The position numbers were made by a program, and so were the translations under genes. Positions 17,949 through 50,059 of a stretch of 64,000 nucleotides of DNA are shown here, in pieces. The notes under the pieces were generated by a model, which saw nothing but the letters and a program-made list of their open reading frames with translations, had not been told where the DNA came from and ran no database searches. Origin of the DNA: Vicinamibacteria bacterium. Lineage in GTDB: Bacteria; Acidobacteriota; Vicinamibacteria; Vicinamibacterales; JAENWD01. Location of the stretch: NCBI GenBank assembly GCA_963743245.1, contig CAVUPP010000020.1, positions 768,167 through 832,166 on the forward strand, written 5' to 3'. Position 1 is the stretch's first letter; each line of letters opens with the position of its first letter.

Positions 17949-18003
17949 AGTCGAAGGGTCGAAGAGTCAGCAAGGGTCGAAGAGTCAAGGGTCGCAAGGT
18001 CAG
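17949..18003. repeat. Tandem array, GTCGAAG family (about 8 nt period)
   Basis: AGTCGAAGGGTCGAAGAGTCAGCAAGGGTCGAAGAGTCAAGGGTCGCAAGGTCAG fills the whole convergent spacer from one stop codon to the other. Confidence 0.85.
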
Positions 18004-23132: not shown

Positions 23133-23154
23133 TGAGCCGGCAGTCTATCTCTAT

Positions 23155-23245
23155 CCACGGTCCACGGCCCACCCTGCGGCGCACGGCACATGGCACACGG
23201 CTCAAGGCCCAAAGCCGAAAGCCCGAGGCCGATGGCCTGAAGGCT
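23155..23245. repeat. Heptamer tandem array (13 units) drifting into the AAAGCCC family
   Basis: Reads CCACGGT CCACGGC CCACCCT GCGGCGC ACGGCAC ATGGCAC ACGGCTC AAGGCCC AAAGCCG AAAGCCC GAGGCCG ATGGCCT GAAGGCT. Confidence 0.85.
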
Positions 23246-23249
23246 CGCT

Positions 23250-25331
23250 CTACTTCCTGACAAACAGCTGAAAGCGGGGGAAGACGAACGCCCCCGCTCC
23301 ATCGTCCACGACGTTGATCTGGCAGGTGTAGAGACCGAGAGGCAGTGCACCCGGTGGCAGATCGAATCGGAACACGGCCGCCTGCCGGTCTGGCGCCGTG
23401 AGCTCGGTCGCTTCGACGGGTGGCGTCTCGAAGGCGCGCACCCGGCCGCGGAAGAACGTGATGCTCGTGACCAGCTTCACTGTGTGCGAGTTGCCCCCGG
23501 GCTGGTAGACCTCGTAGTAGAAGTACAGATGCTGACCGGCCGAGACCACGTGCGTGACATTGGGCACGAGCTTCTGGCCGTTCTGCGCCAGCGGACTCTT
23601 GTCGTCCTTGCGCGCGCCCGTCTGAAGCTGCGTGCCGACCACGACGGAGCTCAATTTGAGTGGATTCGCCTTGAGATCCGGCACTTGCAGGTCGGATTCA
23701 TACGAGCCGTAGGTGCCCAGCACGTTCTCGCGGACGACGACCTTCACGCGGTACGTGCCAGGCGACAGCTCGAGTCCGGTTTCGTACTGCACGATCTTCC
23801 GCTTGAGATCGGCCAGGCCTTCCGGCGCGAGGTGCACGGTGTCGCGGATCTGTCCGACGGGCCGCTTCTGCTTGTCCTCGACCACGCCGAGCACGTCGAG
23901 CGACGCTTTACCCGACTCTGTCTTCGCGGTCACCGGGACCTGATAGCCGGGCACGACGATCGACAATGACACGTAGCTTCGTTTGTCGGACAGCCGGAAC
24001 GCCGCCGCCGAGAGGTACGCGCTGAGGTCGGTCGCAGACAGGTCCGAGAGGAGCTGATCCTCGAGCTGCGCTTCGCGATCCTCACGCGAGGAATGGGAGA
24101 AGTCACGGCCGGCGTAGTAGCCGGCGCGGTACTCGACCTTCAATCCCGGACGTCTGGTCTTGACCGAAATCCGCCGGTAACGCCCGTCGCGAGCCGGATT
24201 CGTGCTGGCATAGGCGAGCACGTAATACGCGGAGGTGTCGTGGATGACTTGCGTGAAGACGCCGCTCAGATCATTGGTGTCAAAGAACGCGCGTCCGCCG
24301 GTGTCCTCCGCGATCGTGGTCAACGTATCCTGCGACCCCGCCATCGCGTCGAATTGAGTGCCCACGCTGGCACCGGAGAACGGTGCCTGACCCCGGAGAC
24401 TCGCCTGCCGGCTTTCGCCGCCCGGCACGATCGCCTGCAGGCCGCGTGCGTCGCTCGCGTAGATTGAGACGTTGGCTCGCACCGCGCGGTCCACCGTGCG
24501 CCGCAGCTGCACCTGATTGTCCTGGCCGGACTGGCTCATGCCGCTGCTGAAATACACGATCGACTTCTTTTGATCGATTCCCGACAACGCGTCCGACAGC
24601 GTTTGCAGCGCCTGCAGGCGCCGATCCGTGTTGAAGATATTGAACTCGGTGTCGTCAACGGTGAACGCCGCCCCATTGTCCGGCGTGCCCTCTGAATCGC
24701 CGGCCGCGCCTTCCTCGAAGCCTTGTCCGCCGGCCGTGTTGAACGCATTGAGCGCGGCGACGAGAGCCGGCCGGTCCGCCGTGAAGTCCTGGTTCACTCG
24801 TAGAGCCGTCGAAAACGATGCAATCGCCACCAGATCCGCGGGCGACAGCTGATTCGTGAGGTAATCGCGAGCCGCAACGACGGCGCGTTCGAGCTCTTCG
24901 GTCTGCATGGAGCTCAAATCGAAGAACAGCACCACGAGCCGGCGCCCACGGAGGTCGGGTGCCGGTGCAACGCTAGCGGCTGGTGCGCCCGATGCGGAGG
25001 GAGCCGATGGCGAGGGCACCGCCTTCAATGCACCACCCAGCACCCTGACCGCATCGAGCGCGGCAATATCGGGTGACGTCCCCAAATCCTCGGCGTCGAA
25101 CGTCTGGATCACCTGCGCCTTGCCATCCTCGCTGACCGTGAAATCGTCCTTCGTCAGGCCGCGGACGATGGCGCCCGTGCGATCCCGGACGACGACATTC
25201 ACGAGGACCAGCTCGGTGGACGTCTTGAACGCGGGCGGACGTTGTCCGATGGACTGTCCCCGCAGCCGCACACTCGGCAGCGCGAGGAGCACGGAGAGAA
25301 CGGCGAAGGCACCGAGGCGTCGGAGCGACAT
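23250..25331 (-). CDS. VWA-domain protein of the acidobacterial VWFA-related family (TIGR03436-like)
   Basis: Has a signal peptide. The N-terminal motif is TELVLVNVVVRDRTGAIVRGLTKDDFTVSEDGKAQ, and the VWA core contains VVLFFDLSS and VSIYASDARGL. Its start lies 1 nt after the upstream OMP gene's stop codon. Confidence 0.85.
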   Translation of the reverse strand: MSLRRLGAFAVLSVLLALPSVRLRGQSIGQRPPAFKTSTELVLVNVVVRDRTGAIVRGLTKDDFTVSEDGKAQVIQTFDAEDLGTSPDIAALDAVRVLGGALKAVPSPSAPSASGAPAASVAPAPDLRGRRLVVLFFDLSSMQTEELERAVVAARDYLTNQLSPADLVAIASFSTALRVNQDFTADRPALVAALNAFNTAGGQGFEEGAAGDSEGTPDNGAAFTVDDTEFNIFNTDRRLQALQTLSDALSGIDQKKSIVYFSSGMSQSGQDNQVQLRRTVDRAVRANVSIYASDARGLQAIVPGGESRQASLRGQAPFSGASVGTQFDAMAGSQDTLTTIAEDTGGRAFFDTNDLSGVFTQVIHDTSAYYVLAYASTNPARDGRYRRISVKTRRPGLKVEYRAGYYAGRDFSHSSREDREAQLEDQLLSDLSATDLSAYLSAAAFRLSDKRSYVSLSIVVPGYQVPVTAKTESGKASLDVLGVVEDKQKRPVGQIRDTVHLAPEGLADLKRKIVQYETGLELSPGTYRVKVVVRENVLGTYGSYESDLQVPDLKANPLKLSSVVVGTQLQTGARKDDKSPLAQNGQKLVPNVTHVVSAGQHLYFYYEVYQPGGNSHTVKLVTSITFFRGRVRAFETPPVEATELTAPDRQAAVFRFDLPPGALPLGLYTCQINVVDDGAGAFVFPRFQLFVRK

Positions 25332-28855: not shown

Positions 28856-28883
28856 GAATCTGGGCCCTTACTGGCCCAGATTC
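28856..28883. promoter_or_regulatory. Perfect 11-bp inverted repeat upstream of the OMP gene, abutting a heptamer array
   Basis: GAATCTGGGCC-CTTACT-GGCCCAGATTC. It could be an operator or an RNA stem-loop; its function is unknown. Confidence 0.4.
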
Positions 28884-28959
28884 AACTCCAACTGCCAACT
28901 TCCAACCTCCAAAGCCCAGGGCCAAGAGCCCAAAGCCTAAAGCCCAAGGCCCAAAGCCC
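28883..28959. repeat. Heptamer tandem array (11 units), AAAGCCC family
   Basis: Reads CAACTCC AACTGCC AACTTCC AACCTCC AAAGCCC AGGGCCA AGAGCCC AAAGCCT AAAGCCC AAGGCCC AAAGCCC. Confidence 0.9.
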
Positions 28960-30314: not shown

Positions 30315-30353
30315 GCTGGCGTTTGTAGGCGAACGCCGCGGGAAAAGCAAATC

Positions 30354-30430
30354 AGTCTTCGGTCTGCGGTCTACAGTCTGCGGGCAGACCGGCGACCGCA
30401 GACCGCAGACCGTAGACCGCAGACCGTATG
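30354..30430 (-). terminator. Inverted heptamer arrays (GTCTGCG/CGCAGAC family) forming a long imperfect hairpin with a U-rich tail on the minus strand
   Basis: AGTCTTC GGTCTGC GGTCTAC AGTCTGC gg GCAGACC GGCGACC GCAGACC GCAGACC GTAGACC GCAGACC. About 20 or more pairs are possible across 30354-30411. The minus-strand RNA then reads GAUUUGCUUUUCC. Confidence 0.55.
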
Positions 30431-30889
30431 TCAGTCCACCTTCTTGCCGACCGCCGTGACGGCGTTCGCGTCGACGACCTGATCGATCTCCCGGCCCTGA
30501 TTGACCACGACGAAGTGCAGCTGCACCGGGAATGGATTTCCAGGCGTGTTGAGTCACCGCCGAGCCAGTGCAGTCCTGGATTGACGTGATAGGTGCCCGT
30601 GCCGGCCGTCCATTCCGGCTCGCGAGGGATGCCGTTGTCCACAATGTGGTCCACCTGGGTGAGATGGCCGTGCCCATCGTAGCGCTGCATGGCGAGGCCG
30701 CGGAGTTCGAGGTTCGGGACCCCAGAATGACGCCCAGTGATAGCGAATCCGTAGGCGCCATACAGCGTCCGGTTGGAACAGCGCCGGCTCTGGTCGGCTC
30801 CTGCGGTCGACGTCGAGACAAGAACGCCACACAGCAGCACGAGTGGTGCTGCTACCAAGGCCATCAGTCGTCGTCAGGTTGAGCTTCAT
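30431..30889 (-). pseudogene. Small secreted protein (lipocalin-like, ...GTYHVNPDCTGS... type) with three apparent 1-nt insertions
   Basis: An AAGGAG ribosome-binding site lies 6 nt before the ATG at 30889 (MKLNLTTT). The protein then continues in shifted frames: MALVAAPLVLL...TGTYHVNP, then DCTGSAVTQH, then PGNPFPVQLHFVVVNQGREIDQVVDANAVTAVGKKVD with a stop at 30431. Confidence 0.4.
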
Positions 30890-30974
30890 TGCCGTCTCCT
30901 TGCCTAAGAAGTGGGATCGGTTGGGCGTCGTGGCAGCACGGTCGCACCGGCCACGAGGAGGAGCAATCGACGGC

Positions 30975-31017
30975 GGGTGAACTGGGGTGTACTGCGGGTG
31001 AATCGCGCTGGGGGTGT
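30975..31017 (+). promoter_or_regulatory. Direct-repeat pair upstream of the winged-helix regulator gene
   Basis: GGGTGAA occurs at 30975 and 30996, 21 nt apart. Each copy is followed by GGGGTGT (at 30984 and 31011). This is a candidate autoregulatory site. Confidence 0.3.
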
Positions 31018-31061
31018 GCGGCCGAGCTATGCGCTAGACTGCAGCCCTCGTCGAGGGTGAG

Positions 31062-33244
31062 GTGCACGGGCCAAGACGCGAGCGTGCGCGCTTCGAGACG
31101 TTCCAGGTCGATCTGACCACCGGCGAGTTGTTCCGGTCAGGCATCCGCATTCCTGTTCAGGATAAGCCGTTTCAGCTCCTTCGCCTACTGCTCGAGGCCG
31201 GCGGCAAGCCCGTCGGCCGCGAACAGATTCGGCAGACGCTCTGGCCGGCCGACACGTTCGTGGACTTCGAGCACGCCGTCAACACCGCGATCAAGAAGCT
31301 CCGCCACGCGCTCGACGATTCGGCGGATCAGCCGCGCTTCATCGAAACGCTGCCAAAGATCGGCTATCGGTTCATCGCACCCATCGAGTGGGAGGATCAG
31401 GACCGTCACGCCGTGCTGTCGGCCGCGGGTCTGCCAATCACCGTCGCGCCGCCCGCAGACGCGACAGGCTCCCCGACAGCCGCGTCCACGGCGGTCCCGT
31501 GGCGGCTCGCGGCTCGTGATCGCTGGAGTCGTCGTTCTGATCCTCGCGGGACTTGCTGCCTACTTCGTCCGGACGCGATCGCAGCCGCCCTCCGATTCGC
31601 TGCGCGTGCTGCCATTCACCACGTTCCCCGGCTTCGAGATCGCGCCGAGCTTCTCACCCGACGGCAACAGCATCGTGTTTTCGTGGTTCGGCTACGAGAA
31701 GGAGTACAACTTCGACCTCTATGTCAAGCAGGTCGGCCAGGAGCGTGTGCTGCAGCTCACGCACCATCCCGCCATCGTTTCTCGGATCGGCGTGGTCACC
31801 CGACGGGCGGTTGATCGCTTTCATGCGGCAAGCCGAGCCCGACGCGACGGGCATCTACGTGATCTCACCGCTTGGCGGCGCGGAGCGGAAGCTGACCTCG
31901 TTCCCACTCATGGAGGGATTTGGACCGCTCGGCGTCACCTGGACGCCCGACAGCAAGTGGGTGGCGTTTTCAAAAGTGATCGACGCCCGGCCACCTGGCA
32001 GCCATGCCGCGCAGAGACGTGTCCATCTGATCAACGTCGAGACCGCCGAGGAGCACGTGCTTCCGGCGCCGGCCTCCGAGTGCGAGGACATCTGGCAACC
32101 GGCCTTCTCGCCCGATGGCAGGACACTCGCATCGGTCTGTGTGCTGACTGGAGGCGTCGGGAAGATCTATCTGCAGGACGCCGATGGCAGCCATCCTCGC
32201 GAAGTGGCCGGCGCCCCTTCGTCCGAATCGATGGCCGGCATCGCGTGGATGCCCGACAGCCAGTCGATCGTCTACAGCGCCGACCTTCATCTCTGGAGGG
32301 TTCCGCTCAATCATGGGACGCCCGAGCGGCTGCTGTTCGCCCAGGACGCCGAGAGCGTGAGCATCGCGCGTGCGGGCAACCGCCTGGCATACGTACAGAC
32401 ACGACATCCACCCGCCATCTACCGCCTCGATCTTGCCGACGCCACGACCGCCGCGAGCGCTGCGACGCGCTTCATCTCATCAAGCCGTGGGGATGCGATG
32501 CCGAGGTTTGCGCCAGACGGCCAGGCGATCGCCTTTGCATCGGAGCGATCGGGCACCCCCGAGCTCTGGTTGTGCGATCGCGATGGAGCCAATTCCGTAC
32601 AACTGAGCCACTTCGGCGGCCCCAGCGTCAGTTCGCCGCAATGGTCTCCGGATGGCCGGGGAATCGTGTTCGACGTTCGGTTCCCAGGCAAGCCGCAGGT
32701 CTACCTCGTGAACCGAAGTGGCGGACCGCCGAAACGGTTCGAGACCGGAACGCCGAACGCGAGATTCCCGGCGTGGTCAGCCGATGGGAGATACATCTAC
32801 TTTTCGACCGAACGGCCCAGTGCCGTGTGGAAGATCCCAGCCGACGGCGGAGCCCCGATCCGGCTGACGGCGGACGGCAGCGTGGGTGCGTTGGAATCAG
32901 ATGATCACCGGCGCGTGATGTACCTCAACGAGCAGGACGGGCTCCGGCTCTGGTCGGCCTCGATCGATGGCGGCGATGAACGGCCTCTTCCTGACCTTCC
33001 GCGCGATGCCTGGTCGTGGACCCTCGCCCCGCACGGGCTCTACTACCTCACCGGCTCACCGACGCAGCGTCAGTTCTCCATGATGCACTTCGACACCACG
33101 ACCAGGCAGTCCAAGAAGGTGGCGGATCTGCCGAGTCTGTTTCACGCCGGTGGTCTTACGGTCTCGAAGGATGGGCGCACGGTGCTCTTCAACGGCAACG
33201 ATCACAGCGAAGGCGACATCATGCTCGTCGAGGGATGGAAATGA
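31062..33244 (+). CDS. Winged-helix (OmpR/CadC-type) DNA-binding protein, TM segment and TolB-like beta-propeller; two apparent 1-nt insertions
   Basis: The wHTH region reads GKPVGREQIRQTLWPADTFVDFEHAVNTAIKKLRHAL...TLPKIGYRFI. The TM segment is IAGVVVLILAGLAAYFV. Repeated SPDG propeller motifs follow. The frame changes at about 31505-31516 and about 31765-31780. Confidence 0.7.
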
Positions 33245-33345
33245 GCCTGGGGCTTTGGGCTTTGGCCCTTGGGCCCACGAGGGTCCAAGAGTTGAAGGGT
33301 CCGCACAGTCGAAGAGCTGCGCCCCTGCGACCCCTTCGACTCGGG
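33245..33345. repeat. Composite array: GGGCTTT family followed by the GTCGAAG family with a small inverted repeat
   Basis: Reads GCCTGGG GCTTTGG GCTTTGG CCCTTGG GCCCACG, then GGGTCCAAGAGTTGAAGGGTCC...AGTCGAAG...CTTCGACT. Confidence 0.75.
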
Positions 33346-33359
33346 GACTGTCGTGAGGT

Positions 33360-33447
33360 TGGTGCCAAAGGGGGGAATCGAACCCCCACGACCCAAAGGG
33401 TCGGCAGATTTTGAGTCTGCTGCGTCTGCCAGTTCCGCCACTTTGGC
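33360..33447 (-). tRNA. tRNA-Leu (anticodon CAA), CCA encoded
   Basis: Minus strand reads GCCAAAGTGGCGGAACTGGCAGACGCAGCAGACTCAAAATCTGCCGACCCTTTGGGTCGTGGGGGTTCGATTCCCCCCTTTGGCACCA. The acceptor stem is GCCAAAG/CTTTGGC, the anticodon loop is CTCAAAA, the variable arm is long, and the T-loop is GGTTCGATTCC. Confidence 0.92.
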
Positions 33448-33450
33448 CAG

Positions 33451-34972
33451 CTACGGGCGCGGGCTCCTTCGAGTATAGGAGCCTCGACCCGGAGGCGACA
33501 AGCGAATCGTCGGCGGCTCAATCGGCGCAAGATGCGGACTGAGGACGACCTCCGGAAAACCGGCCGACGAGGGCGGCGAGAAGAGCAGCCGCCATCGGCC
33601 CTCGCGCAGATAGCGGTCGAAGAAGGCCAGCGTGTAGGCGCTCAGCAGTGCTTCCATCCGCTGGCCGTCGATGCGGCCGAGCAGGCCCGCGGTCTCGAGA
33701 ATCGGCGCGACGAGACTTGCGTCAGAGAAGTTCCAGTGCCTCGCCCCCGTGACCTCGACGCGATACCGATCGCCAGTGGAACGTCCGTAGATTTCGTCGT
33801 TCACCGTGTTGCCCTCGCGTACGAAGTAGAGCAGCGGCACGCCGAGCGGCGTGGCCTCGGCCCGTCCGTGCTGACGTCCGTCCATGTTGAGCGCGGCCAC
33901 GCAGCGATCGTCGCGAAGGCAGAACTCTCCGGCCGCCGATCCGCCGAACGACATACCGAAGACGCCGATACGCGCGCGATCGAGGCGGTGCGCCAACAAT
34001 GCACTCGGCAAGCCCTGATCGCGCGAGGTTCCATCGTCGATGGCCTCGAAGTGATCGACGAGCCTTCCGATGTCCTGCACCCACAGCTCGAGACTCTGAT
34101 CGAGCAGGGGATGCGATGCGTCGCTCGACGACGTGCGTGATTCCCGCGCCTGAGCGAACACGGCTCTCATCCGCTGCGCATCGCCCTGCAGCGAGATGAC
34201 CATCGGGAAAGAGCAGTCCGGCACTCTCGAACGGATGGCCGACGCTGAAGACAATGAAGCCGTGGCTGGCGAGCTCTTCCATCTGTATCGTGTTCTGCCA
34301 GGGCGTCGAGCCGTACCCGTGCGAGAACACGAGCACCGGATAGCGCGGGTGCTCGTTCGTCAGCGGCGCGTCCGGGTAGCTGTGCGAGCGAATCGATCGA
34401 AGATGCGCGAGCGGATTGAGTCGAGGCAGGCCGAAGAGCCCCAGTGCCGCTGGTGCCACGACGGGCGCGTCTGGCCAGAACGCCTCCGGACGAGCGCCTG
34501 GCAGCGGCTTCGCCGGATACCACGCGAGGATCGGGAGGACGCGCCGTGCGCGGCCATCCGCTGCCAATGGATCGATCGGCGCACCATCGTCCACGATGAA
34601 GCGGACGCGTCCGACCGCGTTCGGTCCCGACGGCGCCGGCGGAACGAAGATGGGGACACCGACGGCGAGCGCGAGGGTAAGCGCGAGACACGTCGCCACA
34701 AGCAGCGTCCGCGCGATGGTCCAGACCTGCCGCCACCGAGATGACTCGGCGGGGACTGGCGAACGCCAGAGCCGGACGACCAGCCACGCAAGGACGGCGT
34801 ACGACGGTGCGAACTGCCATCGAGGCGACCCGAAGGCAGCCTGCAGGACGAGGCATCCGAGAGCCGCGCGCGCAAGCCAGCGCCACCAGTCGGCGGGACG
34901 CCGCGTTCGGGTCGGAGCGCTGAGCGCAGCGGGCACGATCGCCACGATCAGCAGAATGTCGAGTGGTTGCAT
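33451..34972 (-). CDS. Membrane-anchored alpha/beta hydrolase (PAF-acetylhydrolase / dienelactone-hydrolase-like); apparent 1-nt insertion
   Basis: The N-terminus has TM helices, followed by YPVLVFSHGYGS and GVFGMSFGG (nucleophile elbow). ORFs 33722-34972 and 33451-34254 join at about 34200-34208 (..LLFP|MVISLQGD..). Confidence 0.65.
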
Positions 34973-35072
34973 GAACGCGGGCGGCCGGCTTGCAGATTAT
35001 GCGCTGAGGCGACAGAATGCCACCGCAGCCCGGCCGGGGCCGGCCCGGCGCAGCCTTCATCGGAGCATTTAC

Positions 35073-35576
35073 ATGAGTGTGAGCAAGATCGTCCAGGACG
35101 CCATCAACCGGCAGGTCAACGCCGAATTGAGCGCGTCGTACCAATACCTCGCCATGGCGGCCTATTGCGAACAGCAGCATCTGCGCGGCATTGCGCGCTG
35201 GATGCGCCTCCAGAGCCAGGAGGAGTACGGGCACGGCATGAAGCTCTTCGACTTCCTGATCGCTCGCGGATGTGAAGTCGAGTTGAAGCAGCTGACGGCG
35301 CCCACCGTCACGTTCCCGACCGTCATGGCGGTCTTCGAGACCGTGTTACGGCAGGAGCAGGAAGTCAGCGCAGCCATCGACACGCTGTACGACCTCGCGT
35401 TCCGCGAGAAGGCGTTCTCGGCGACCGTCGAGCTCCAGTGGTTCCTGACCGAGCAGGTGGAAGAGGAGCAGTCGGCGCGAGAAATTCTCGCCAAGCTGCA
35501 GATGGTCAAGGACGACCCGGCGTCGCTGCTGGATCTCGATCGGGAGCTTGGATCGCGCGCCCCTGGAGCGAAGTAG
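35073..35576 (+). CDS. Ferritin (non-haem, Ftn-type)
   Basis: Starts MSVSKIVQDAINRQVNAELSASYQYLAMAAYCE and contains QSQEEYGHGMKLFDF. It is 167 aa. The ATG at 35073 lies inside a longer track ORF. Confidence 0.85.
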   Translation: MSVSKIVQDAINRQVNAELSASYQYLAMAAYCEQQHLRGIARWMRLQSQEEYGHGMKLFDFLIARGCEVELKQLTAPTVTFPTVMAVFETVLRQEQEVSAAIDTLYDLAFREKAFSATVELQWFLTEQVEEEQSAREILAKLQMVKDDPASLLDLDRELGSRAPGAK

Positions 35577-35578
35577 AT

Positions 35579-35647
35579 CGGTCTGCGGTCTACAGTCTGC
35601 GGTCTGCGGCTTACGAATACGAACCCGAACACGAATCCGAACACGAC
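35579..35647. repeat. Composite array: GTCTGCG heptamers followed by GAACAC hexamers
   Basis: Reads CGGTCTGCGGTCTACAGTCTGCGGTCTGCGG CTTAC GAATAC GAACCC GAACAC GAATCC GAACAC GAC. It fills the convergent spacer. Confidence 0.85.
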
Positions 35648-35654: not shown

Positions 35655-38405
35655 CTACGGAGTCGTCCTCAGTTGATGTAACCGATTCCACATCTCCTCG
35701 ACCGTCGATCGCAGACGTCCCGTGGTGACGGTGTAATCGCGGGGCGCCCCCTCGGACGCCGCGGCCGGTGCCAGCGGTGTTCCGACTTCCAGCGTGACGT
35801 GCAGCCGCCGCCACGGGCGGAACGCACCCCAGTTGATCGGACGATTGCGCGGCCACAGGTCGTAGACGCCATCGAGGGCGACCGGCACGATCGGCACCCC
35901 GAGCGTGTCGGACAGAATTGCCGCTCCCTTCTTGAACGCGCGGACGGTGCCGTCGATCGACCGCTCACCCTCCGGGAACAGCACGAGCACCCGTCCATGT
36001 CGCAAGCCGAAGGCACCGGCCTGCATCGCGGGCACCAGACTCGCATCGGGATCCACCGGCACGACGTTCAGCTCGCGCGCGAGCCATTTCATCAGCGGCG
36101 TCTCGAAGTATTCGCTGGCGCCGACGAAGAACATTTCGTTGAACACCCGCAGCGGCAGCCCACCCACCAGCGCGAATATGTCCACGTAGCTTTGATGGTT
36201 AGGGCAGATGAGATACGGCCCTTTCGAGGGCAGTCGATCCACTCCGCGCACATCCAGCCGGATGCCGAGCCGCAGCACCAGGAGGGCGATGCGCAGGAGG
36301 ACGAAGAGCAGCCGTGAGGTGAGCGTCTTCGGCTGGAGCAACGTGTCGAGTTCGGGCGTGTGCGGAGGATCCGTCGCGAGCAGGGTGGCCCACGCATCAC
36401 CAGACTCGGCCGTGTCACCCGCGCGATGCTGCCCGATGGCCTCGACGAGCTCCCGCACGGTGAAGACGCGTTGGGCATCCTCGTCTGGCACATCCGCACC
36501 GAAGCGTTGCTCCAGCGCCGTGAGCAACTCGACGCGCTCCATCGAGTCGAGGCCCAAATCCAGCTCGAGGTTGGCGTCCGGCCTCGCCACGCGCCCCTCG
36601 CGCGCGGCCTTCTGGATGACAGCGAGGATGGGCGCGACGTCATCGCGCTCGCTCCATTCGCGATCGGCATCCGTGATGGCGGCTGCCGGTTCCACGGACG
36701 CTGCCTGACGTTCCCGGACTCTGCGCTCGATCTCGAATCGCTTCAACTTGCCGGTCGTCGTGCGCGGCAACGGTTCCATCCAGACTTCGTAGCCGAGCAC
36801 ACGCTTGTGCGCGGGGAGCCCGACCGAGCGTCCTTCCATCTCGAACCGGATCAGATCGCCCGCGTTGACGATCTTCTTCTCGCGCAGCACGTCCGGATCG
36901 GGGACGACCACGGCATACAGCCGCTCGGCGCTCGGCTCGTCGGGCCGCGTCAGCCCCAGGACGCACAATTCCTTGATGAACGGCGACTGCCGGTAGTGCG
37001 CCTCGATCTCTTCCGGATAGATGTTCTTGCCCGAGCTGAGGACGATGATTTCCTTCTTCCGGCCAGTGATGGTGAGGCGGCCGGCTGCGTCGATGCGGCC
37101 GAGGTCCCCTGTGTGGAACCAGCCGTCCTTGATGGCGGCAGCGGTCGCATCCGGACGGTTGTAGTAGCCCGCCATCACGATCGGGCCGCGAATCGCCACT
37201 TCGCCGTCGCTCAGTCCGGTCTCGGCCGTCTCGGGTGGCAGGATGCGCAGCTCCGATCCCGGCAACGCCTGGCCCACCGTTTCGAGGTGCGGATCGCCGG
37301 GGTGCATGATCGTCGCGGCGCCTGACGTCTCGGTGAGCCCGTACGCCTGCATGATGTTGAACCCCATCCGATAGAGGTCCGCCCCGATCTCCGGATCGAA
37401 GCGCGACCCTCCCGTGATGAGGAGCCGCATGCGCCCGCCGAGGACCCGGTGGACGCGCGCAAACAGCAGCGGGCCCGCATTGACACCAAGACGCCGCAGC
37501 ACGCCGTTGGTGGCGAGGAATACGCGGAACATCGCGCGCACGGGCAGGCTCGCGCGTGCCACTTCGCTCGTGACGCGCTGGTGAATCAGATAGAAGAACT
37601 GCGGCACGCACGCGAACGCCGTCACACCGCGCTCGGAGAGCGCGCGCAGCAGCTCGGTCGTGTTGACAGATTCGAGAAACACGACTCGCGCGCCAATCGA
37701 AAACGGGAGCAGCAGATTGGCCATCTGCGCGAGGGCATGAAAGAGCGGCAGCACGCCCAGCACGCAGTCCCGCTCGTCAACGCTGATGACAGCAAACGCG
37801 CCTTCACGTTCGGCGAGCAGGTTGCCGTGTGTGAGGACGACGCCCTTGGGATCGCTGGTGGTGCCCGACGTGTAGAGGATGACCGCCGGATCCGACGGAC
37901 CGCTCGGACAATCGGGGACCGGGCCGAGCGATGCGTCCGACACGATCCTGTCCACGATGGGCAGCGTGTCGTGAGGCGGGTGGAGGAGTGCGACGGGCGT
38001 CTGGGTGCCTGCCTGCTGGCGTCCATCGGTCACGGCATCCAGGTGGCGCGCGGTCGTGAACACGATGGACGGCTGACAGTCGGTGATGAGTCGAGCAACC
38101 TGCGCGGCCTTGTACGCGGTGTCGAGAGGGACGGCGATGGCGCCCAGGCGGAGGATGCCGAGGTATGTCGCACACCAGTGCGCGTCGTTCTCGGCCAGGA
38201 TGGCGCATCGGTTGCCGGCCTGGACACCCTGGCGCTGAAGCCAGACGGCGATGCGTCCAGCCATACTGTCGAGCTGGCTGTAGGTGACCGTCTCCAGATG
38301 GTCCCGGTGCTGGACTTCGATAGCCGGGCGCTCGCCCACACGCGCGACGGCGCCGGCGAACTGGTCGAAGAAGTTACGCATGGTGGAGTCGTGCGGCGGG
38401 GGCAT
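35655..38405 (-). CDS. Tri-domain acyl-activating enzyme: AMP-binding acyl-CoA/ACP synthetase, carrier-protein domain and PlsC-type acyltransferase (Aas-like)
   Basis: The AMP-binding motifs are ILYTSGTTSDPKGV and TGDLGRIDAAGRLTITGRKKE. The carrier-domain motif is LGLDSMERVELL. The acyltransferase HX4D motif is CPNHQSYVD, and FPEGERS is also present. Confidence 0.85.
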   Translation of the reverse strand: MPPPHDSTMRNFFDQFAGAVARVGERPAIEVQHRDHLETVTYSQLDSMAGRIAVWLQRQGVQAGNRCAILAENDAHWCATYLGILRLGAIAVPLDTAYKAAQVARLITDCQPSIVFTTARHLDAVTDGRQQAGTQTPVALLHPPHDTLPIVDRIVSDASLGPVPDCPSGPSDPAVILYTSGTTSDPKGVVLTHGNLLAEREGAFAVISVDERDCVLGVLPLFHALAQMANLLLPFSIGARVVFLESVNTTELLRALSERGVTAFACVPQFFYLIHQRVTSEVARASLPVRAMFRVFLATNGVLRRLGVNAGPLLFARVHRVLGGRMRLLITGGSRFDPEIGADLYRMGFNIMQAYGLTETSGAATIMHPGDPHLETVGQALPGSELRILPPETAETGLSDGEVAIRGPIVMAGYYNRPDATAAAIKDGWFHTGDLGRIDAAGRLTITGRKKEIIVLSSGKNIYPEEIEAHYRQSPFIKELCVLGLTRPDEPSAERLYAVVVPDPDVLREKKIVNAGDLIRFEMEGRSVGLPAHKRVLGYEVWMEPLPRTTTGKLKRFEIERRVRERQAASVEPAAAITDADREWSERDDVAPILAVIQKAAREGRVARPDANLELDLGLDSMERVELLTALEQRFGADVPDEDAQRVFTVRELVEAIGQHRAGDTAESGDAWATLLATDPPHTPELDTLLQPKTLTSRLLFVLLRIALLVLRLGIRLDVRGVDRLPSKGPYLICPNHQSYVDIFALVGGLPLRVFNEMFFVGASEYFETPLMKWLARELNVVPVDPDASLVPAMQAGAFGLRHGRVLVLFPEGERSIDGTVRAFKKGAAILSDTLGVPIVPVALDGVYDLWPRNRPINWGAFRPWRRLHVTLEVGTPLAPAAASEGAPRDYTVTTGRLRSTVEEMWNRLHQLRTTP

Positions 38406-40848: not shown

Positions 40849-40850
40849 GG

Positions 40851-40937
40851 GGCTTTGGGCGTTGGACTTTGGGCCTTAGGCGTTGGGTCTGGCTTTGGCC
40901 TTTTGGCGTTGGGCTTTGGCGTGGCTCAGGCGTTGCA
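40851..40937. repeat. Heptamer array, GGGCTTT orientation of the AAAGCCC family
   Basis: Reads GGCTTTG GGCGTTG GACTTTG GGCCTTA GGCGTTG GGTCTGG CTTTGGC CTTTTGG CGTTGGG CTTTGGC... Confidence 0.85.
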
Positions 40938-40948
40938 CTCGCTGGGGC

Positions 40949-41371
40949 ATGCGAGACTTCCGAAAGCTCCGGACGTACCAGCTTGCTGATGCGCTCGTCC
41001 TCACTGTCTACGACGTCACACGCGCCTTCCCGAGAGAAGAGCTGTTCGGCCTCACAAGACAGTTACGTCGGGCCGCCGTGTCTGTCCCGACCAACATCGT
41101 CGAAGGTTCTGCCCGACCAACCACGGGCGACTATCTACATTTCCTCAACATCGCCATGGGCTCGTCGGTCGAAACGGCCTATCTCGTTGGCCTGGCAGGT
41201 CGCGTAGGTATGCTAGACGGGCCCAAAGCCGACTCATTGCGCGAGCGATACTTTGAACTGAGCCGTCGGCTGCAGACGCAAATTGCTGAATTGCGCGCGC
41301 GAGCCGGGGCCGAAGCACTGCGTAAGCCCAACACCTCGCGAAACGTTAGGGCCCGGCCGGCAACGAGCTAA
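40949..41371 (+). CDS. Four-helix-bundle protein (23S rRNA intervening-sequence protein / Avd-like family)
   Basis: Reads MRDFRKLRTYQLADALVLTVYDVTRAFPREELFGLTRQLRRAAVSVPTNIVEGSAR. The ATG is at 40949. Confidence 0.85.
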   Translation: MRDFRKLRTYQLADALVLTVYDVTRAFPREELFGLTRQLRRAAVSVPTNIVEGSARPTTGDYLHFLNIAMGSSVETAYLVGLAGRVGMLDGPKADSLRERYFELSRRLQTQIAELRARAGAEALRKPNTSRNVRARPATS

Positions 41372-41380
41372 GCGCACGCC

Positions 41381-41428
41381 GAAGGCCCAACGCCTAGAGC
41401 CCAAAGCCAAGGCCAAAGCCAAGCGCCT
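41381..41428. repeat. Heptamer array, AAAGCCC orientation (inverted relative to 40851-40937)
   Basis: Reads GAAGGCC CAACGCC TAGAGCC CAAAGCC AAGGCCA AAGCCAA GCGCCTC. Confidence 0.85.
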
Positions 41429-41523: not shown

Positions 41524-43786
41524 GTGCGTACACGCGCGCAGTGGCTCCGCCAGGCGCGGTTCCATCGCCTTCTGACAGAAGCCGCCGTCGCCGTCCTGAT
41601 CCTCGTGATCGTCGCAGCCGTGAGTGTGCTCGGGCGGGCAGATCGGCAGGCGGCGGCTGCCGACGGGAAGCCGCAGCCGACAGGCCAGGCGCAGCCGACC
41701 ACGCAGCCGCGTCCGCCGTTCCGCGTGGGTGCGAACCTGGTCCGCGTGGACGTCTTCCCGACGAAAGACGGCAAGCCCGTGCGCGACTTGACCGCGGCCG
41801 ACTTCGACGTGCTCGAAGACGGCGTCCCGCAGAAGGTTGAGAGCTTCGAGCACGTCGAGATCAGCGGGCAGATTCCCACCGAAGAGCGCCGCGAGCCCAA
41901 CACGATGCGCGAAGCGCGCGCGATGGCCGAAGATCCGCGGAGCCGCATCTTCATCATCTTCCTCGACACCTATCACACCGAAGTAGCCGGCTCGCACCGG
42001 ATGCAGACGGTGCTCGAGCACCTGCTCGATCGGATCATAGGTCCGGACGATCTGTTCGGCGTGATGACGCCGGAGATGTCGGCCACCGACATCACGCTGT
42101 CGCGACGGACGGAAACCACGGAAGGGTTCCTGCACAAGTACTGGTATTGGGGACGGCGGGATCGGCTCGCGGACCGGGATCCGGTCGAGGCGATGTACGA
42201 GTCGTGCTATCCGGAGCAGGACACGCGCACGTGCCCGGATCCGAGAGATCCCACTGGCAAGAAGACGATCACCCAACAGAACACGTACCACTACGTTGCG
42301 CGCGAGATGATTCAACGCCGCCGCGAGAAACGCGTGCTCGATGCGCTCACCGATCTCAGCACGTATCTGCAGGGACTGCGCGAAGAGCGGAAAGCCGTGA
42401 TCGCCGTCAGCGATGGCTGGTTGCTGTTCCGGGAGAATCAGGCGCTGACGCGGATTGGCAACTGCGATCAGCCGCCGACGGGGCCGCAGATCGGAGTGGG
42501 TCCCGACGGGCGCATCACGAGTGACAAGCCGCACGCCGAAGGCAACTACTCACAGCAGACATGCGATACCGATCGGATGCACCTCGCACAGCTCGACAAC
42601 TGGCAGACGTTCCGGGACCTTCTCGATCGGGCGAACCGCGCCAACGTGAGCTTCTATCCCATCGATTCGCGGGGATTGCCTGCGTTTGATACGAGCATCG
42701 AGGAAGACACGCCGACGACGATCGGTGTGCCCGTGTACGTGGATCGTCAGATGCTCACGGCACGGATCGAGAATCTGCGGACGCTCGCCGACGCGACCGA
42801 TGGCCTCGCCGTCGTGGAGAACAACAACATCGAACTGGGCGTCAAGCGCATCGTCGACGATGTCAGCTCGTATTACCTGCTCGGCTACTACTCGACCAAC
42901 GCGAAGCTCGATGGACGCTTCCGCTCGATCAAGGTGCGCGTGAAACGGTCCGGTGTGGACGTCCGTGCGCGCCGGGGCTATAAGGCACCGACCGAAGAAG
43001 AGTTCACGCGCGGGCGTGAGATGACGGCGAAAGCCCAGGTGTCCGGTCCGCCACCGGCCTTCCAGACCGCGATGGCCTCGCTCGCCGCCGTGCGCAGCAA
43101 CTTTCGCTTCATCACCAGCGTGAGCTGGCTCGCCGCGCCGATCGACGACTCGGTGCCGGGCGCGAAGAGCCACGTGTGGATCGTCGGCGAGATGGACCAG
43201 GCGACGTCGAAAGGGCAGGAGTGGCTCGGCGGCGCCCAGGCCGAGGTGCTCCTCACTGCCGAGGACGGCGTCAAGATCGCCGAGCTCACGCAGCCTGTAC
43301 CCGCGCCCGTCCACATCGTCAGTGTCACGCTGCCCGATGTGCCGCTCGGTCCAGGTCGAGTACACGCTGCGGTTGCGCCTGAAGCCATCGGGCGGTGGCC
43401 TGCCGTTCCTGGATACCGTGCATTTTACGGTCGCCGACGCAGGCGAGCTCACGGGCAAGGCGCGACTGCTACGCCGTGGACTGTCCACCGGCGTCCAGTA
43501 CGTCGCCACGGCCGATCCACAGTTCAGACGTACGGACCGTTTGCGCGTCGAGATTCCGCTGCTGGGTGCGGTGGATGGGGCACGCGGCGAGCTGCTCAAC
43601 AAGACCGGCCAGGTCATGCCCGTGCCGGTCGAGGCGTCTACGCGTCGCGAAGATGCCGCACTGCAGTGGGCGAGTGCGGATGCGTTGCTGGCGCCGCTCG
43701 CGCCGGGCGACTACGCCATCCGGACGACCATCCAGCGCGGGACGACTACGCAGCAGATCCTGACGGCGTTCCGCATCGTGCCCTGA
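41524..43786 (+). CDS. Acidobacterial VWFA-family protein, paralog 1; 1-nt insertion at 43356
   Basis: Contains ANLVRVDVFPTKDGKPVRDLTAADFDVLEDG, IFIIFLDTYHT and VSFYPIDSRGL. Copy 1 has CCAGGTCGAG where copy 2 has CCAGGCGAG. The protein continues in ORF 43322-43786. Confidence 0.8.
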
Positions 43787-43807
43787 TCTCTCAACTCGGA
43801 TCTGGCC

Positions 43808-43837
43808 TTGAGCGCAGGCCCGCCTCCGACGTATCCT
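43808..43837 (+). promoter_or_regulatory. Candidate sigma70 promoter of VWFA paralog 2
   Basis: TTGAGC-N18-TATCCT. This is a duplicate of 41453-41482, including the shared CCGACGTATCCTGA stretch. Confidence 0.5.
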
Positions 43838-43876
43838 GAGAGCGCCAGCCCTGCTTCCCCTGTTTGGAGTGTCGCG

Positions 43877-46105
43877 GTGCGTACATGCGCCCAGTGGCTC
43901 CGCCAGGCGAGGTCCCATCGCCTTCTGATCCAGTCCTCCGGTGCCGTTCTCATCCTCCTAGTCGTCGCCGGTGTGAGCGCGCTCGCACGGGGCGATCGGC
44001 AGGCGCCGGCCACCAACGGTGCGCCGCCGAGCGGCCAGACGCAGGCGACGGCTCAGCCGCGTCCGCCGTTTCGTGCAGGAGCGAACCTGGTGCGCGTGGA
44101 TGTGTTCCCGATGAAGGACGGCAAGCCCGTGCGCGACCTGACGGCCGCTGACTTCGAAGTCTTCGAAGACGGCAAGCTGCAGAAGGTCGAAAGCTTCGAG
44201 CACGTCGAAATCAGCGGACAGGTTCCTCAGGACGAGCGGCGCGAGCCCAACACGGTGCGTGAAGCGCGCGCGATGGCCGAAGACTCGCGCAGCCGCATCT
44301 TCGTCGTATTTCTCGACACCTATCACACGGAGCTGGCCGGCTCGCACCGCATGCAGAAAGTGCTGGTCGATCTGCTCGATCGCATCATCGGCCCCGACGA
44401 CATGTTCGCGGTGATGACTCCGGAAATGTCGCCGAGCGACCTGGCACTCGCACGACGCACCGAGACCACAGCCGGAATGTTGTCGAAGTACTGGACGTGG
44501 GGGCGCCGCGATCAACCCGCGGACGTGGATCCGATCGAGCTGGAGTATCAGCACTGCTACCCGGAAACGGCGGTGGGCCGGTGCGACGAACCGTCCACCG
44601 CCGGCATGCCGCCTCGGGGCTTCTACAACGGAGTTTCGAAGGAGATGATCGCTCGGCGCCGCGAGCGGATGGTGCTCGACGCCCTTGGCGACCTGAGTAT
44701 GTACCTGGAGGGCCTCCGCGACGAGCGCAAGGCGGTCATCGCGATCAGCGATGGCTGGCTGCTCTATCGGCCGAATTCATCGTTGACGCGGCTCTCGCCA
44801 TGCGATCGTCCGTCGACCGGACCACGGCCGGTTGCGGGGGCGGATGGACGCATCGCGACCGCGGAGGGCACCTACGATCGGTGCGAAGCCGATCGCGGAA
44901 AGCTCGCGGAGCTCGACGACTGGCAGAAGTTCCAGGATCTACTCGACCGGGCCAACCGCGCCAACGTGAGCTTCTACCCGATCGACTCACGCGGACTGCC
45001 TGCGGCCGATACGCAGATCTACGAAGACACGCCGACGACGGTCGGCGTGCCGGTGTACCTCGACAAGGCGATGCTGACGACACGCATCGAGAACTTGCGG
45101 ACACTTGCCGACGCGACCGATGGTCTGGCCGTCGTCGAGAACAACAATCTTGAACGAGGCATCCACCGCATCGTGGACGACCTGACGTCGTACTACCTGC
45201 TGGGCTATTACTCCACCAACGCGAAGCTCGATGGACGCTTCCGCTCGATCAAGGTGCGTGTGAAGCGATCCGGCGTGGACGTCCGCGCACGGCGTGGCTA
45301 CAAGGCGGCAACAGAGGAAGAGATCACTCGCAGTCGTGAGATGAGCGCGAAGGTGCAGATCTCTGGACCTCCGCCGGCGTTCCAGACCGCGATAGCCTCG
45401 CTCGCCGCCGTGCGCAGCAACTTCCGCTTCATTACCAGCGTGAGCTGGCTCGCCGCTCCGATCGACGGCTCGGTACCGGGCGCGAAGAGCCACGTCTGGC
45501 TCGTCGGCGAAATGGACCAGGCGACCTCGAAAGGGCAGGAGTGGCTCGGCGGCGCACAGGCCGAGGTGCTCCTCACCGCCGAGGACGGCGTCAAAATCGC
45601 CGAACTGACCCAACCGGTGCCCGCGCCCGTCCGCATCGTCAGTGTCACGCTGCCCGACGTGCCGCTCGGTCCAGGCGAGTACACGCTGCGGTTGCGCCTG
45701 AAGCCATCGGGCGGTGGCCTGCCGTTCTTGGATACGGTGCACTTCACCGTCGCCGACGCGGGCGATCTCACCGGCAAGGCGCGACTGTTACGCCGTGGAC
45801 TGTCGACAGGCGTCCAGTACGTCGCCACCGCCGATCCGCAGTTCCGACGGACGGACCGCTTGCGCGTCGAGATTCCGCTGCTGGGTGCGGTGGATGGGGC
45901 ACGCGGTGAGCTGCTCAACAAGACCGGCCAGGTCATGCCCGTGCCGGTCGAGGCGTCTACCCGTCGCGAGGATGCCGTACTGCAGTGGGCGAGCGCGGAT
46001 GCGTTGTTAGCGCCACTGGCGCCGGGCGACTACGCCATCCGGACGACCATCCAGCGCGGGACGACTACGCAGCAGATTCTGACGGCGTTCCGCATCGTGC
46101 CCTGA
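43877..46105 (+). CDS. Acidobacterial VWFA-family protein, paralog 2
   Basis: The GTG at 43877 is homologous to the paralog 1 start (VRTCAQWLRQAR). By eye, the C-terminal half is more than 90 percent identical to paralog 1 at the nucleotide level. Confidence 0.85.
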   Translation: MRTCAQWLRQARSHRLLIQSSGAVLILLVVAGVSALARGDRQAPATNGAPPSGQTQATAQPRPPFRAGANLVRVDVFPMKDGKPVRDLTAADFEVFEDGKLQKVESFEHVEISGQVPQDERREPNTVREARAMAEDSRSRIFVVFLDTYHTELAGSHRMQKVLVDLLDRIIGPDDMFAVMTPEMSPSDLALARRTETTAGMLSKYWTWGRRDQPADVDPIELEYQHCYPETAVGRCDEPSTAGMPPRGFYNGVSKEMIARRRERMVLDALGDLSMYLEGLRDERKAVIAISDGWLLYRPNSSLTRLSPCDRPSTGPRPVAGADGRIATAEGTYDRCEADRGKLAELDDWQKFQDLLDRANRANVSFYPIDSRGLPAADTQIYEDTPTTVGVPVYLDKAMLTTRIENLRTLADATDGLAVVENNNLERGIHRIVDDLTSYYLLGYYSTNAKLDGRFRSIKVRVKRSGVDVRARRGYKAATEEEITRSREMSAKVQISGPPPAFQTAIASLAAVRSNFRFITSVSWLAAPIDGSVPGAKSHVWLVGEMDQATSKGQEWLGGAQAEVLLTAEDGVKIAELTQPVPAPVRIVSVTLPDVPLGPGEYTLRLRLKPSGGGLPFLDTVHFTVADAGDLTGKARLLRRGLSTGVQYVATADPQFRRTDRLRVEIPLLGAVDGARGELLNKTGQVMPVPVEASTRREDAVLQWASADALLAPLAPGDYAIRTTIQRGTTTQQILTAFRIVP

Positions 46106-46127
46106 TTTCGCAGACGAGAGGTGACGT

Positions 46128-48254: not shown

Positions 48255-48445
48255 CCGAGGCCGCGACGCTGGCGAGGCCGGCGCTTCGTGACAGCCACAT
48301 TTACACCCTTCACAGTCGTTGCGCGTTGAGACCGATCGGTCAGGCGCGTTTGTGTTGGATTCGCGGCTGCAGGCCGTTGGATGACGTGGCAGCACGATTG
48401 CACAGCTTCGGGCGCACCCGGCACGACACGACCCACCAGGCAATC

Positions 48446-48506
48446 GATCGATACGACTCGACTCGACTGATTCGATTCGACTGATTCGATTCGACCGACC
48501 CGACTG
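48446..48506. repeat. Tandem array, CGATTCGACT family (14-nt unit, equal to 2x7)
   Basis: Reads CGATACG ACTCGAC TCGACTG ATTCGAT TCGACTG ATTCGAT TCGACCG ACCCGAC TG. Confidence 0.8.
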
Positions 48507-48606
48507 AAAGACCAAACTTTTTCGTTTCGGACGCGACTCTGTCCGGCGTGTGTACGGCGGATTCGGCGTCCATGGTCGAAGACTGCCCGAGACAAGGAGT
48601 CAGGGA

Positions 48607-49960: not shown

Positions 49961-50059
49961 GGTCTAACTCTGGCAGTCTACGGTCTTCAGTCTGCGGTCC
50001 GCGTGTGGCAGCGGACGGCGTCGTGGCAGCCGAAGACCGTAGACTGAAGACTGCGGACC
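49961..50059. repeat. Inverted heptamer arrays (GTCTGCG family) between convergent genes; candidate bidirectional terminator
   Basis: AGTCTACGGTCTTC (49975-49988) is the perfect complement of GAAGACCGTAGACT (50032-50045). The flanking units are GGTCTAA, AGTCTGC and GGTCCGC on one side, and GAAGACT and GCGGACC on the other. Confidence 0.7.

Follow-up and report, generated by a model that had tools for sequence, protein, structure and literature searches.

Why should two unlinked arrays of short repeats in one bacterial genome share an exact, irregular string of 25 nucleotides (nt)? The question is raised by a 64-kb stretch of a Vicinamibacteria bacterium contig (CAVUPP010000020.1, positions 768,167–832,166; G+C content 65%), hereafter the window, in which TCGGTCTGCGGTCTACAGTCTGCGG occurs exactly at 30359–30383 (+; site 1) and at 35578–35602 (+; site 2), while a related string, CAGTCTACGGTCTTCAGTCTGCGG, lies at 49974–49997 (site 3). 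A first-pass annotation of this DNA had argued that arrays generated independently should not share such a string, and had suggested that the copies were dispersed or homogenised, either by recombination or gene conversion or in the manner of a miniature inverted-repeat transposable element (MITE) or a repetitive extragenic palindromic (REP) element. Here we propose another answer, to which we give a probability of about 0.55: the two 25-mers are parts of degenerate heptamer arrays, a population that extends through the genome and directly follows stop codons, and not discrete transposed copies. In this reading sites 1 and 3 would be hairpins like those of the intervening sequences (IVSs) of 23S rRNA, without an open reading frame (ORF), and site 2 would be a solo arm of the 5' type.

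Results

The shared 25-mer and its base rate

The observation itself was confirmed. A search of the window returned the exact 25-mer at both positions, the sequence at site 3 bore out the related version, and none of 100 dinucleotide-preserving shuffles contained any 25-mer match at three or fewer mismatches. The bases flanking the 25-mer differ on both sides between sites 1 and 2, so that the identity is exactly 25 nt long. The gene contexts are different as well, all neighbours being unrelated housekeeping genes: a small secreted-protein ORF and a Gfo/Idh/MocA oxidoreductase at site 1, ferritin and an AMP-binding/acyltransferase fusion at site 2, and a di-haem oxidoreductase and a Big_5 protein at site 3. 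A further copy with two mismatches lies on the minus strand at 30403–30427, and because of this inverted copy site 1 is a palindrome. Compared with random sequence the identity is far beyond chance; compared with heptamer arrays of the same family it is only mildly unusual.

The latter comparison was made with arrays from other genomes. A scan of one genome per species for three RGTCTNC units followed by RGTC yielded at least 120 stretches, and those among the matches listed came from Acidobacteriota, Bacteroidota, Chloroflexota, Planctomycetota, Gemmatimonadota, Cyanobacteria, archaea and others. The same matches included 67 heterogeneous arrays from different loci, mostly in different phyla. 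Exact, non-periodic identities of at least 25 nt were common to 36 of the 2,192 between-locus pairs (1.6%), and identities of at least 21 nt to 3.4%, so the premise that an irregular 25-mer should not be common to independent arrays fails. In the right arm of site 1, 31 nt, including the supposedly irregular GGTCTAC unit, are identical to a Chloroflexota metagenome-assembled genome (MAG), and a gammaproteobacterial MAG matches this arm over 24 nt. Less common are orders in which three different units follow one another: among the arrays in the matches listed there were 22 kinds, two of which recurred, namely GGTCTGC-GGTCTAC-AGTCTGC at the two window sites and on the metagenome contig L122, and another order in two unrelated MAGs. 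L122 was also the one contig recovered by a metagenome scan for the 23-mer core. It is identical to site 2 over 27 nt and to site 1 at 31 of 32 positions, and adjoins an unrelated gene of the PDZ-protease-like type, with unrelated flanks. In the window and the metagenome collection, the search for related copies that the first-pass annotation had recommended gave the inverted copy in the window and this single contig for the 23-mer core, and no further metagenome contigs.

Array units were more similar within a genome than between genomes (0.296 vs 0.160, permutation p = 0.0018). In the window, G is the preferred base at unit position 6; in three related MAGs it is T, C, or T/A. This unit dialect is a real sign of constraint or homogenisation within the genome. 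For the eight cross-site array pairs of the window, we estimated the chance of one such match at about 0.05–0.13 with between-genome rates and at about 0.3 when the unit frequencies of the genome itself were used. Independent arrays drawing on a small shared vocabulary are therefore compatible with the identity, which does not by itself require transposition or conversion; taken alone, a shared 25-mer is ordinary for low-complexity arrays of this kind.

RGTCTNC hairpins in the loci L002–L121 showed a preferred orientation. Among the matches listed, the order 5'-RGTCTNC...GNAGACY-3' was found in 18 cases and the reverse order in 5, and a transcript of either strand therefore meets the G/U-rich arm first.

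Heptamer arrays follow stop codons across the window

Degenerate short-period arrays, identified with Tandem Repeats Finder (TRF) and by direct reading, occur in about half of the intergenic spacers. With a gene map self-trained on codon usage, and counting arrays of at least three copies, 22 of 26 short-period arrays fell outside predicted genes in a window that is 86% coding (13.5% non-coding; binomial p = 6e-16). The period was 7 in 14 of these 22 intergenic arrays, and at all three sites TRF reported period-7 arrays of 4–6 copies. The GGTCTNCGGTCT pattern had 17 matches vs 1.4 expected. Read on the sense strand, the array families are GGCTTTG (the commonest, at nine places), GGTCTGC, GTTCGT, GGGGTTCC, GTCGAAGG and CGACT. 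Intergenic arrays start 0–15 nt past stop codons, and of the 15 stop-adjacent arrays 13 are richer in G than in C when read on the sense strand (p = 0.004), the two exceptions tracing to doubtful ORF calls. Head-to-tail units of 5–11 nt beyond the composition expectation, together with the strong non-coding bias, place these arrays with the heptanucleotide long simple sequence repeats (LSSRs) and short tandemly repeated repetitive sequences (STRRs).

Arrays acting as a frame-independent stop signal were considered and rejected on inspection, as most units are free of stops in all frames.

Predicted hairpins at sites 1 and 3, and none at site 2

The left arm of site 1 (30355–30383, +; units AGTCTTC, GGTCTGC, GGTCTAC and AGTCTGC, then GG) holds the 25-mer and is antisense to local transcription, both neighbouring genes being on the minus strand. 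Its right arm (30384–30428, −; units GGTCTGC, GGTCTAC, GGTCTGC, GGTCTGC, GGTCGCC and GGTCTGC) includes the inverted copy and begins 4 nt past the TGA (30431–30433) of the upstream minus-strand ORF. Inverted-repeat detection and folding against shuffles predicted a hairpin with arms in 30355–30426 at −59.5 kcal/mol (z −8.4), with the Gfo/Idh/MocA start codon (ATG, 30314) about 40 nt downstream. In the predicted fold of the minus-strand RNA, the hairpin and its U-rich tail span 30340–30428, and GACUGAUUUGCUUUUCCC is the tail after the stem. Site 3 (49974–50058, not assigned to a strand) consists of inverted RGTCTNC arrays with a predicted hairpin of −55 to −56 kcal/mol (z −3.5 to −5.6), which occupies the spacer between the convergent genes 48550–49959 (+, di-haem oxidoreductase) and 50062–51213 (−, Big_5). 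The loops of sites 1 and 3 measure 2–45 nt.

Site 2 (35578–35609, +; units GGTCTGC, GGTCTAC, AGTCTGC and GGTCTGC, then GG) is an unpaired array whose 25-mer starts 2 nt past the ferritin TAG (35574–35576), and folding against shuffles found no significant predicted structure there (z +0.5 to +0.8). A second, unrelated array at this site (35613–35646, −), of the GTTCGT type on the minus strand and ACGAAC on the plus strand, lies 9 nt past the stop of the convergent AMP-binding/acyltransferase gene (35655–38405). Each of the two convergent genes has its own G-rich array, and the GGTCTGC and GTTCGT-type arrays are not complementary. As for terminator features, site 1 has a strong stem followed by GAUUUGCUUUU, site 3 a stem without a U tract, and site 2 no stem. 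A scan of the window at Rfam gathering thresholds returned a tRNA-Leu only, with no known RNA family at the arrays and no rRNA.

The small secreted-protein ORF beside site 1 (30431–30864, −) needs two reading frames, one for its N-terminus (MALVAAPLVLL...) and one for its C-terminus (...VQLHFVVVNQGREIDQVVDANAVTAVGKKVD, followed by the stop), and a frameshift, pseudogene or sequencing error is indicated near 30530–30560. The uninterrupted frame of this ORF reads through the site 1 hairpin.

A PF05635 gene lies between inverted heptamer arrays

The most elaborate array structure of the window is a cassette at 40850–41427. Its 5' arm (40850–40935, +) is made of G-rich arrays of the GGGCTTT type that start 2 nt past the stop of a DUF4126 gene, and its 3' arm (41375–41427, +) of C-rich arrays of the CCAAAGC type. 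[quoted passage not shown] The arms are 76–82% complementary over 33–46 nt (3' arm vs 40851–40917), and in the predicted minimum-free-energy fold the two array blocks pair as a single long closing stem. Some homologues of the DUF4126 protein, at about 70% identity, are Vicinamibacterales proteins.

This arrangement recurs across the family. The three other members in the fetched loci (L048 Vicinamibacterales, L069, L086 Saprospiraceae) all lie between inverted heptamer arrays, with differing unit families. A search of IMG/VR added 44 further PF05635 loci, and 42 non-duplicate loci were scored by inverted-repeat Smith-Waterman (SW) alignment between the flanks and by lag-7 self-identity of each flank. 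At thresholds set after the data had been inspected, 31 of the 42 loci (74%) reached an SW score of at least 20, vs 15 of 580 control ORFs (2.6%; Fisher 7e-32), none of 80 pseudo-positions in the same loci and 4 of 151 size-matched controls outside the four-helix-bundle family. When a lag-7 self-identity of at least 0.68 was required of both flanks in addition, 15 of 42 loci qualified vs 3 of 580 control ORFs (Fisher 1e-16) and 0 of 80 pseudo-positions; the combined criterion was not separated for the size-matched controls. The few control positives are ordinary genes of array-rich genomes, and the association spans G+C contents of 39–69%. Cassette polarity is fixed on the ORF sense strand: all 16 strong-array loci have a G-rich 5' arm and a C-rich 3' arm. 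Units of the RGTCTNC type also occur at PF05635 genes: GGTCTTC in L048, AGTCTAC/TAGTCTG in L069 and L139, and AGTCTGC in L141.

On phage contigs, the neighbours of the sampled PF05635 copies are baseplate, portal, terminase, Mom and integrase genes, and no reverse transcriptase was found beside these copies. Two low-GC phage contigs from IMG/VR (L166 and L170, 40–42% G+C) carry cassettes that share a GAAGGCA/CCTTCTG unit family and adjoin integrase or small-terminase genes; the cassette travels in phages as well.

The cassette site is also found empty. In L176, whose DUF4126 protein is 91% identical, GGGGCTTTGGGCG directly follows the stop as in the window, about 570 nt that include the four-helix-bundle gene and most arrays are absent, and the alignment resumes near 41489. 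Relatives at 75% and 82% identity (L173–L175) have, in this position, heptamer hairpins without a gene, built from other unit families. This comparison of filled and empty sites indicates that the cassette is an insertion/deletion polymorphism within a heptamer hairpin.

With respect to the features of IVS-type elements, terminal inverted repeats forming a long stem are present in the predicted folds of sites 1 and 3 and of the cassette, and a PF05635 (S23p) ORF in the loop is present at 40949–41371 and not at sites 1 and 3. Insertion into a 23S rRNA helix was not seen, all copies lying between protein-coding genes.

The contents of orthologous sites turn over

Orthologous positions in relatives of the window carried different repeats. 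On the 3' side of ferritin, L001 (a 99.4%-identical metagenome contig) has the identical GGTCTGC array and, in the neighbouring ACGAAC array, one 1-nt deletion. L123 (94% amino-acid identity) has GTCTTC GGTCTTC units at the same position, its contig ending within the array; L124 (85%) has an ordinary GC-rich stem-loop; L125 (83%) has a GAGGTTA/CCTCCAA heptamer hairpin at 6515–6623, followed by a Tex gene; and in L126–L128 (78%) nothing was recognisable at this position. L028, an Acidobacteriota MAG, is syntenic to the window from 47.7 to 55.5 kb at about 82–85% DNA identity. At its orthologue of site 3 (2240–2400), three tandem copies of a 68-nt REP-like palindrome (GTCCTCAGGCGGGGTGCATTCGAGGACAGGACGAATGACCCCGCC...) replace the heptamer hairpin, and opposite the CCAAAGG-type array of the window (54465) it carries GGAGTGC and GACCGTAGACTGAAGACC arrays. 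These comparisons indicate that the niche directly after the stop codon is constant and that its filler turns over.

Duplication and known mobile classes

Segmental duplication of sites 1 and 2 was rejected: similarity does not extend beyond the arrays, and the genes on their flanks are unrelated. The first-pass annotation had recommended comparing the flanks for target-site duplications or conserved boundaries; none was found, and the flanks of sites 1, 2 and L122 are unrelated. MITEs were rejected in view of the lack of terminal inverted repeats, target-site duplications or a conserved body, of arms that differ in length and register, and of the unrelated L122 flanks. REP elements and their composites, the bacterial interspersed mosaic elements (BIMEs) and REP doublets forming hairpins (REPINs), were rejected as well, there being no conserved unit of 20–40 nt, no REP-associated tyrosine transposase (RAYT) or Y1 transposase among the window proteins, and a single metagenome contig with the 23-mer. 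A diversity-generating retroelement (DGR) was rejected for want of a reverse transcriptase domain among the window proteins and of a template repeat/variable repeat (TR/VR) pair. No transposase, RAYT, integrase or reverse transcriptase was found among the window proteins.

Other arrays and genes of the window

A typical member of the GGCTTTG family (28883–28959, −) lies 6 nt past the stop of the Gfo/Idh/MocA gene, and similar solo arrays are at 7196–7216, 12722–12776, 17950–17999, 23154–23224, 33250–33274, 54465–54491 and 62307–62328. The GGGCTTT family (for example 33250–33274 and 40850–40919) has by sequence the feature of G-quadruplex-forming heptamer repeats of the GGGAATC type, at least four tracts of three or more G at 7-nt spacing; units of the GGTCTGC type have GG runs only and lack the required G3 tracts.

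Two further inverted array pairs, of the CATTCGT and TTCGTG types, are at 1913–2095 and 8377–8534, with loops of 112–124 nt in which the family hidden Markov model (HMM) detected no four-helix-bundle remnant; the pair at 8377–8534 lies in a divergent promoter region and does not follow a stop codon. A CAACTCC/CCAAAGC array (866–915) about 100 nt downstream of a tRNA-Ser (688–765), with an epimerase gene after it, departs from the polarity rule: its sense strand is the C-rich one. A pentamer/14-mer array (CGACT, TCGATTCGACTGAT) at 48444–48505, in the 295-nt spacer upstream of the di-haem oxidoreductase gene, has a period unlike that of the other arrays and abuts no stop codon.

The region 41524–48254 holds three tandem paralogues of about 710–770 amino acids (76% and 45% identical), with a distant paralogue at 23250–25331. 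None of these four proteins had a Pfam match at E ≤ 1e-5; we take their N-termini to resemble Acidobacteria VWFA-related domain proteins.

Discussion

A proposed explanation for the shared 25-mer and its setting

The question of the shared 25-mer can be answered by the system in which it is embedded, to which the probability of about 0.55 applies as a whole. An array placed directly after a stop codon would be transcribed as the tail of the upstream gene. Where two arrays are inverted, as at sites 1 and 3, they are predicted to form a stem of 25–30 base pairs (bp), and this long duplex may end or process the transcript, as a putative RNase III substrate or as a terminator-like 3' stem. Slippage in a register of 7 nt would lengthen and shorten the arrays and turn them over, and their unit variants may be kept alike within a genome by a common constraint or through conversion. 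PF05635 genes in this genome, in many other taxa and in phages are enclosed by an arrangement of the same kind (G-rich array, loop, C-rich array), which is also that of the ORF-bearing Coxiella 23S rRNA IVS, and the ORF-less hairpins and solo arrays would belong to the same class of element as these cassettes. Where about eight unit variants are allowed and the dialect is specific to the genome, two arrays can be expected to match exactly over three units (25 nt) as a by-product. What the first-pass annotation had called dispersal or homogenisation thus survives in one respect: the arrays are connected, by the dialect of the genome, by the rules of position and strand and by the architecture that they share with the PF05635 cassette. 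The identity of the 25-mer itself is not what shows the connection.

Several points weigh against this explanation. The flank-score thresholds (SW ≥ 20; lag-7 ≥ 0.68) were chosen with the data in view. Arrays outnumber PF05635 genes by about 20 to 1 in the window, and the family HMM, run over six-frame fragments, found no four-helix-bundle remnants in the loops of the other hairpins; because of this excess and the missing remnants, the link between cassette and hairpins is drawn from shared architecture, unit families and one orthologous site, and not from descent. Most arrays of the window are solo and unable to form a stem. A consensus terminator scan called none of the three sites, among which only site 1 has a U-rich tail. 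The excess of G over C on the sense strand was not significant in other Acidobacteriota loci (31 vs 24), which had been picked for RGTCTNC arrays, whose units are nearly balanced in G and C. The count of the 25-mer, finally, covers the 64-kb window of the source genome.

A wider form of the explanation is possible, and we offer it tentatively. The STRR/LSSR arrays of many phyla would then be the arms or footprints of a selfish cassette of the IVS type, whose autonomous form bears a PF05635 gene and whose protein may recognise the 7-nt repeats or help to generate them. Such a cassette would ride on host transcripts behind the stop codon and be freed through the array stem. ORF-less hairpins and solo arrays, both 25-mer sites included, would be non-autonomous or decayed forms, and their dialect would co-evolve with the resident proteins.

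Alternative explanations

The alternative that survives best, although we hold it to be rather unlikely, is plain slippage of the microsatellite kind, tolerated after genes: the arrays would have no function and no connection with PF05635 cassettes, whose genes merely insert or persist there, and the 25-mer would be a coincidence. An excess of intergenic heptamer simple sequence repeats in prokaryotes is known and has been attributed to polymerase slippage (PMC4679880, PMC4692102), and the long identities between unrelated genomes, the quick turnover at orthologous sites and the prevalence of solo arrays all agree with it. Slippage alone, however, does not predict the polarity on the sense strand (13 of 15), the abutment on stop codons or the dialect within the genome. 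Nor does it predict that inverted arrays should accompany one gene family at 74% vs 2.6% over G+C contents of 39–69%, and it leaves unexplained the heptamers inside the Coxiella 23S IVS, a context without such spacers (PMC4990558).

Recent copy-paste between sites 1 and 2, by ectopic gene conversion or array recombination, is unlikely. In its favour, the order of three different units common to the two sites was seen elsewhere only in L122, among the 22 kinds in the matches listed, and units are more alike within than between genomes. The ferritin site of the 94% relative, moreover, has GGTCTTC units, the dominant variant of another related MAG, which looks like concerted change. But the match is three units long and ends at the array edges, the 25-mer is antisense to the local genes at site 1 and sense at site 2, and the chance of such a match in the window is about 0.05–0.3. 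A tract of 25 nt is also at the lower limit for homologous exchange, which weighs against conversion.

It is very improbable that the hairpins are REP/BIME (REPIN)- or MITE-type elements spread by a RAYT or transposase, the mobilisation that the first-pass annotation had envisaged: they are intergenic, palindromic, recurrent and placed after genes, and a true REP-like 68-nt unit stands in triplicate at the L028 orthologue of site 3, but they have no conserved unit length, end sequence, terminal inverted repeats or target-site duplications, their arms are variable tandem heptamers, no RAYT or transposase is encoded in the window, and the 23-mer was found on one metagenome contig only.

The remaining proposal, which we judge equally improbable and which is compatible with our explanation, makes the arrays strand-specific insulators of transcription: the complement, rich in C and poor in G with one YC per 7 nt, could be where Rho loads onto antisense or read-through transcripts that enter the 3' end of a gene, and G-quadruplexes or R-loops may form on the G-rich sense strand (G3N4, GGGCTTT family). 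The sense strand is indeed G-rich and the antisense strand C-rich, and at the convergent site 2, where each gene has its own G-rich array, each read-through transcript would next meet a C-rich array. G-rich heptamers of Xanthomonas and Nostoc have the same downstream bias on the coding strand and form G-quadruplexes in vitro (PMC4692102). GGTCTGC units, however, have GG runs only, and hairpins would sequester the C-rich arm.

Relation to known systems

The system is related to known kinds, namely IVS elements and heptamer simple sequence repeats. The Coxiella 23S rRNA IVS has an S23p (PF05635) ORF, a 28-bp terminal stem that is cut by RNase III, and 2–4 tandem GACAGAT heptamers beside the ORF, whose number varies between strains; the IVS was long ago suggested to have a mobile origin, its ORF being the mobility factor (PMC4990558). 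The elements of the window resemble the ORF-bearing IVSs of Coxiella burnetii and Leptospira in the terminal inverted repeats that form a long stem around a PF05635 ORF, in the tandem heptamers of the 5' part, and in presence and absence as of a selfish insertion (PMC4990558). Unlike these IVSs, they follow protein-coding genes and occur in phages, not in helix 25 or 45 of 23S rRNA; their arms are whole heptamer arrays of many unit families, and most window copies, namely sites 1 and 3, lack an ORF.

The excess of heptanucleotide simple sequence repeats in intergenic DNA, the cyanobacterial STRRs and the GGGAATC repeats of Xanthomonas and GGGGAYT repeats of Nostoc have been described but not explained; the latter two lie downstream of genes on the coding strand, and inverted pairs of them may form stem-loops (PMC4692102, PMC4679880). 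Like these LSSR/STRR-type repeats, which vary in length and sequence between close relatives, the window arrays are degenerate tandem heptamers, intergenic and downstream with a G-rich sense strand (PMC4692102, PMC4679880); unlike them, several unit families occur in one 64-kb window, and the GGTCTGC family lacks G3 runs. The TAACTGA repeats of Beggiatoaceae, Cyanobacteria and Bacteroidetes, likewise described without an explanation, are also intergenic direct repeats of a heptamer with a patchy distribution across phyla (PMC4679880), but they have one fixed unit and lie just upstream of start codons, whereas the window arrays follow stop codons and are degenerate. With REP/BIME (REPIN) elements and their RAYTs the hairpins share palindromy and the 3' intergenic niche, in which a REP-like element substitutes for the heptamer hairpin in L028; they differ in arms of variable tandem repeats, without a conserved REP sequence or a RAYT. 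PF05635 proteins are homologous to the four-helix bundle of the DGR accessory protein Avd (PMC10053308), but neither the window nor the surroundings of the sampled phage copies contain a reverse transcriptase or a TR/VR pair.

In an incomplete library, in which an earlier description elsewhere may have been missed, the Coxiella IVS was the only account found of PF05635 genes with flanking heptamer arrays, and no paper was found that extends such flanks to PF05635 genes in general or reports cassettes of this kind behind protein-coding genes.

Meaning of the system

The surrounding system, in which strand-polar arrays and hairpins abut stop codons and share their architecture with an insertable IVS-protein cassette, is more interesting than the 25-mer itself. 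For genome annotation it means that the arrays create long spurious ORFs, because they have no stops in most frames. The arrays probably also mark transcript 3' ends in phyla without canonical terminators. Three loose ends may be one story: the excess of intergenic heptanucleotide repeats, the role of the widespread, function-less family of 'four helix bundle / 23S rRNA IVS proteins', and the origin of rRNA intervening sequences. Should hairpins of heptamer arrays be the general framework of an IVS-like cassette, one also found behind ordinary genes and in phages, each of these three questions would become testable.

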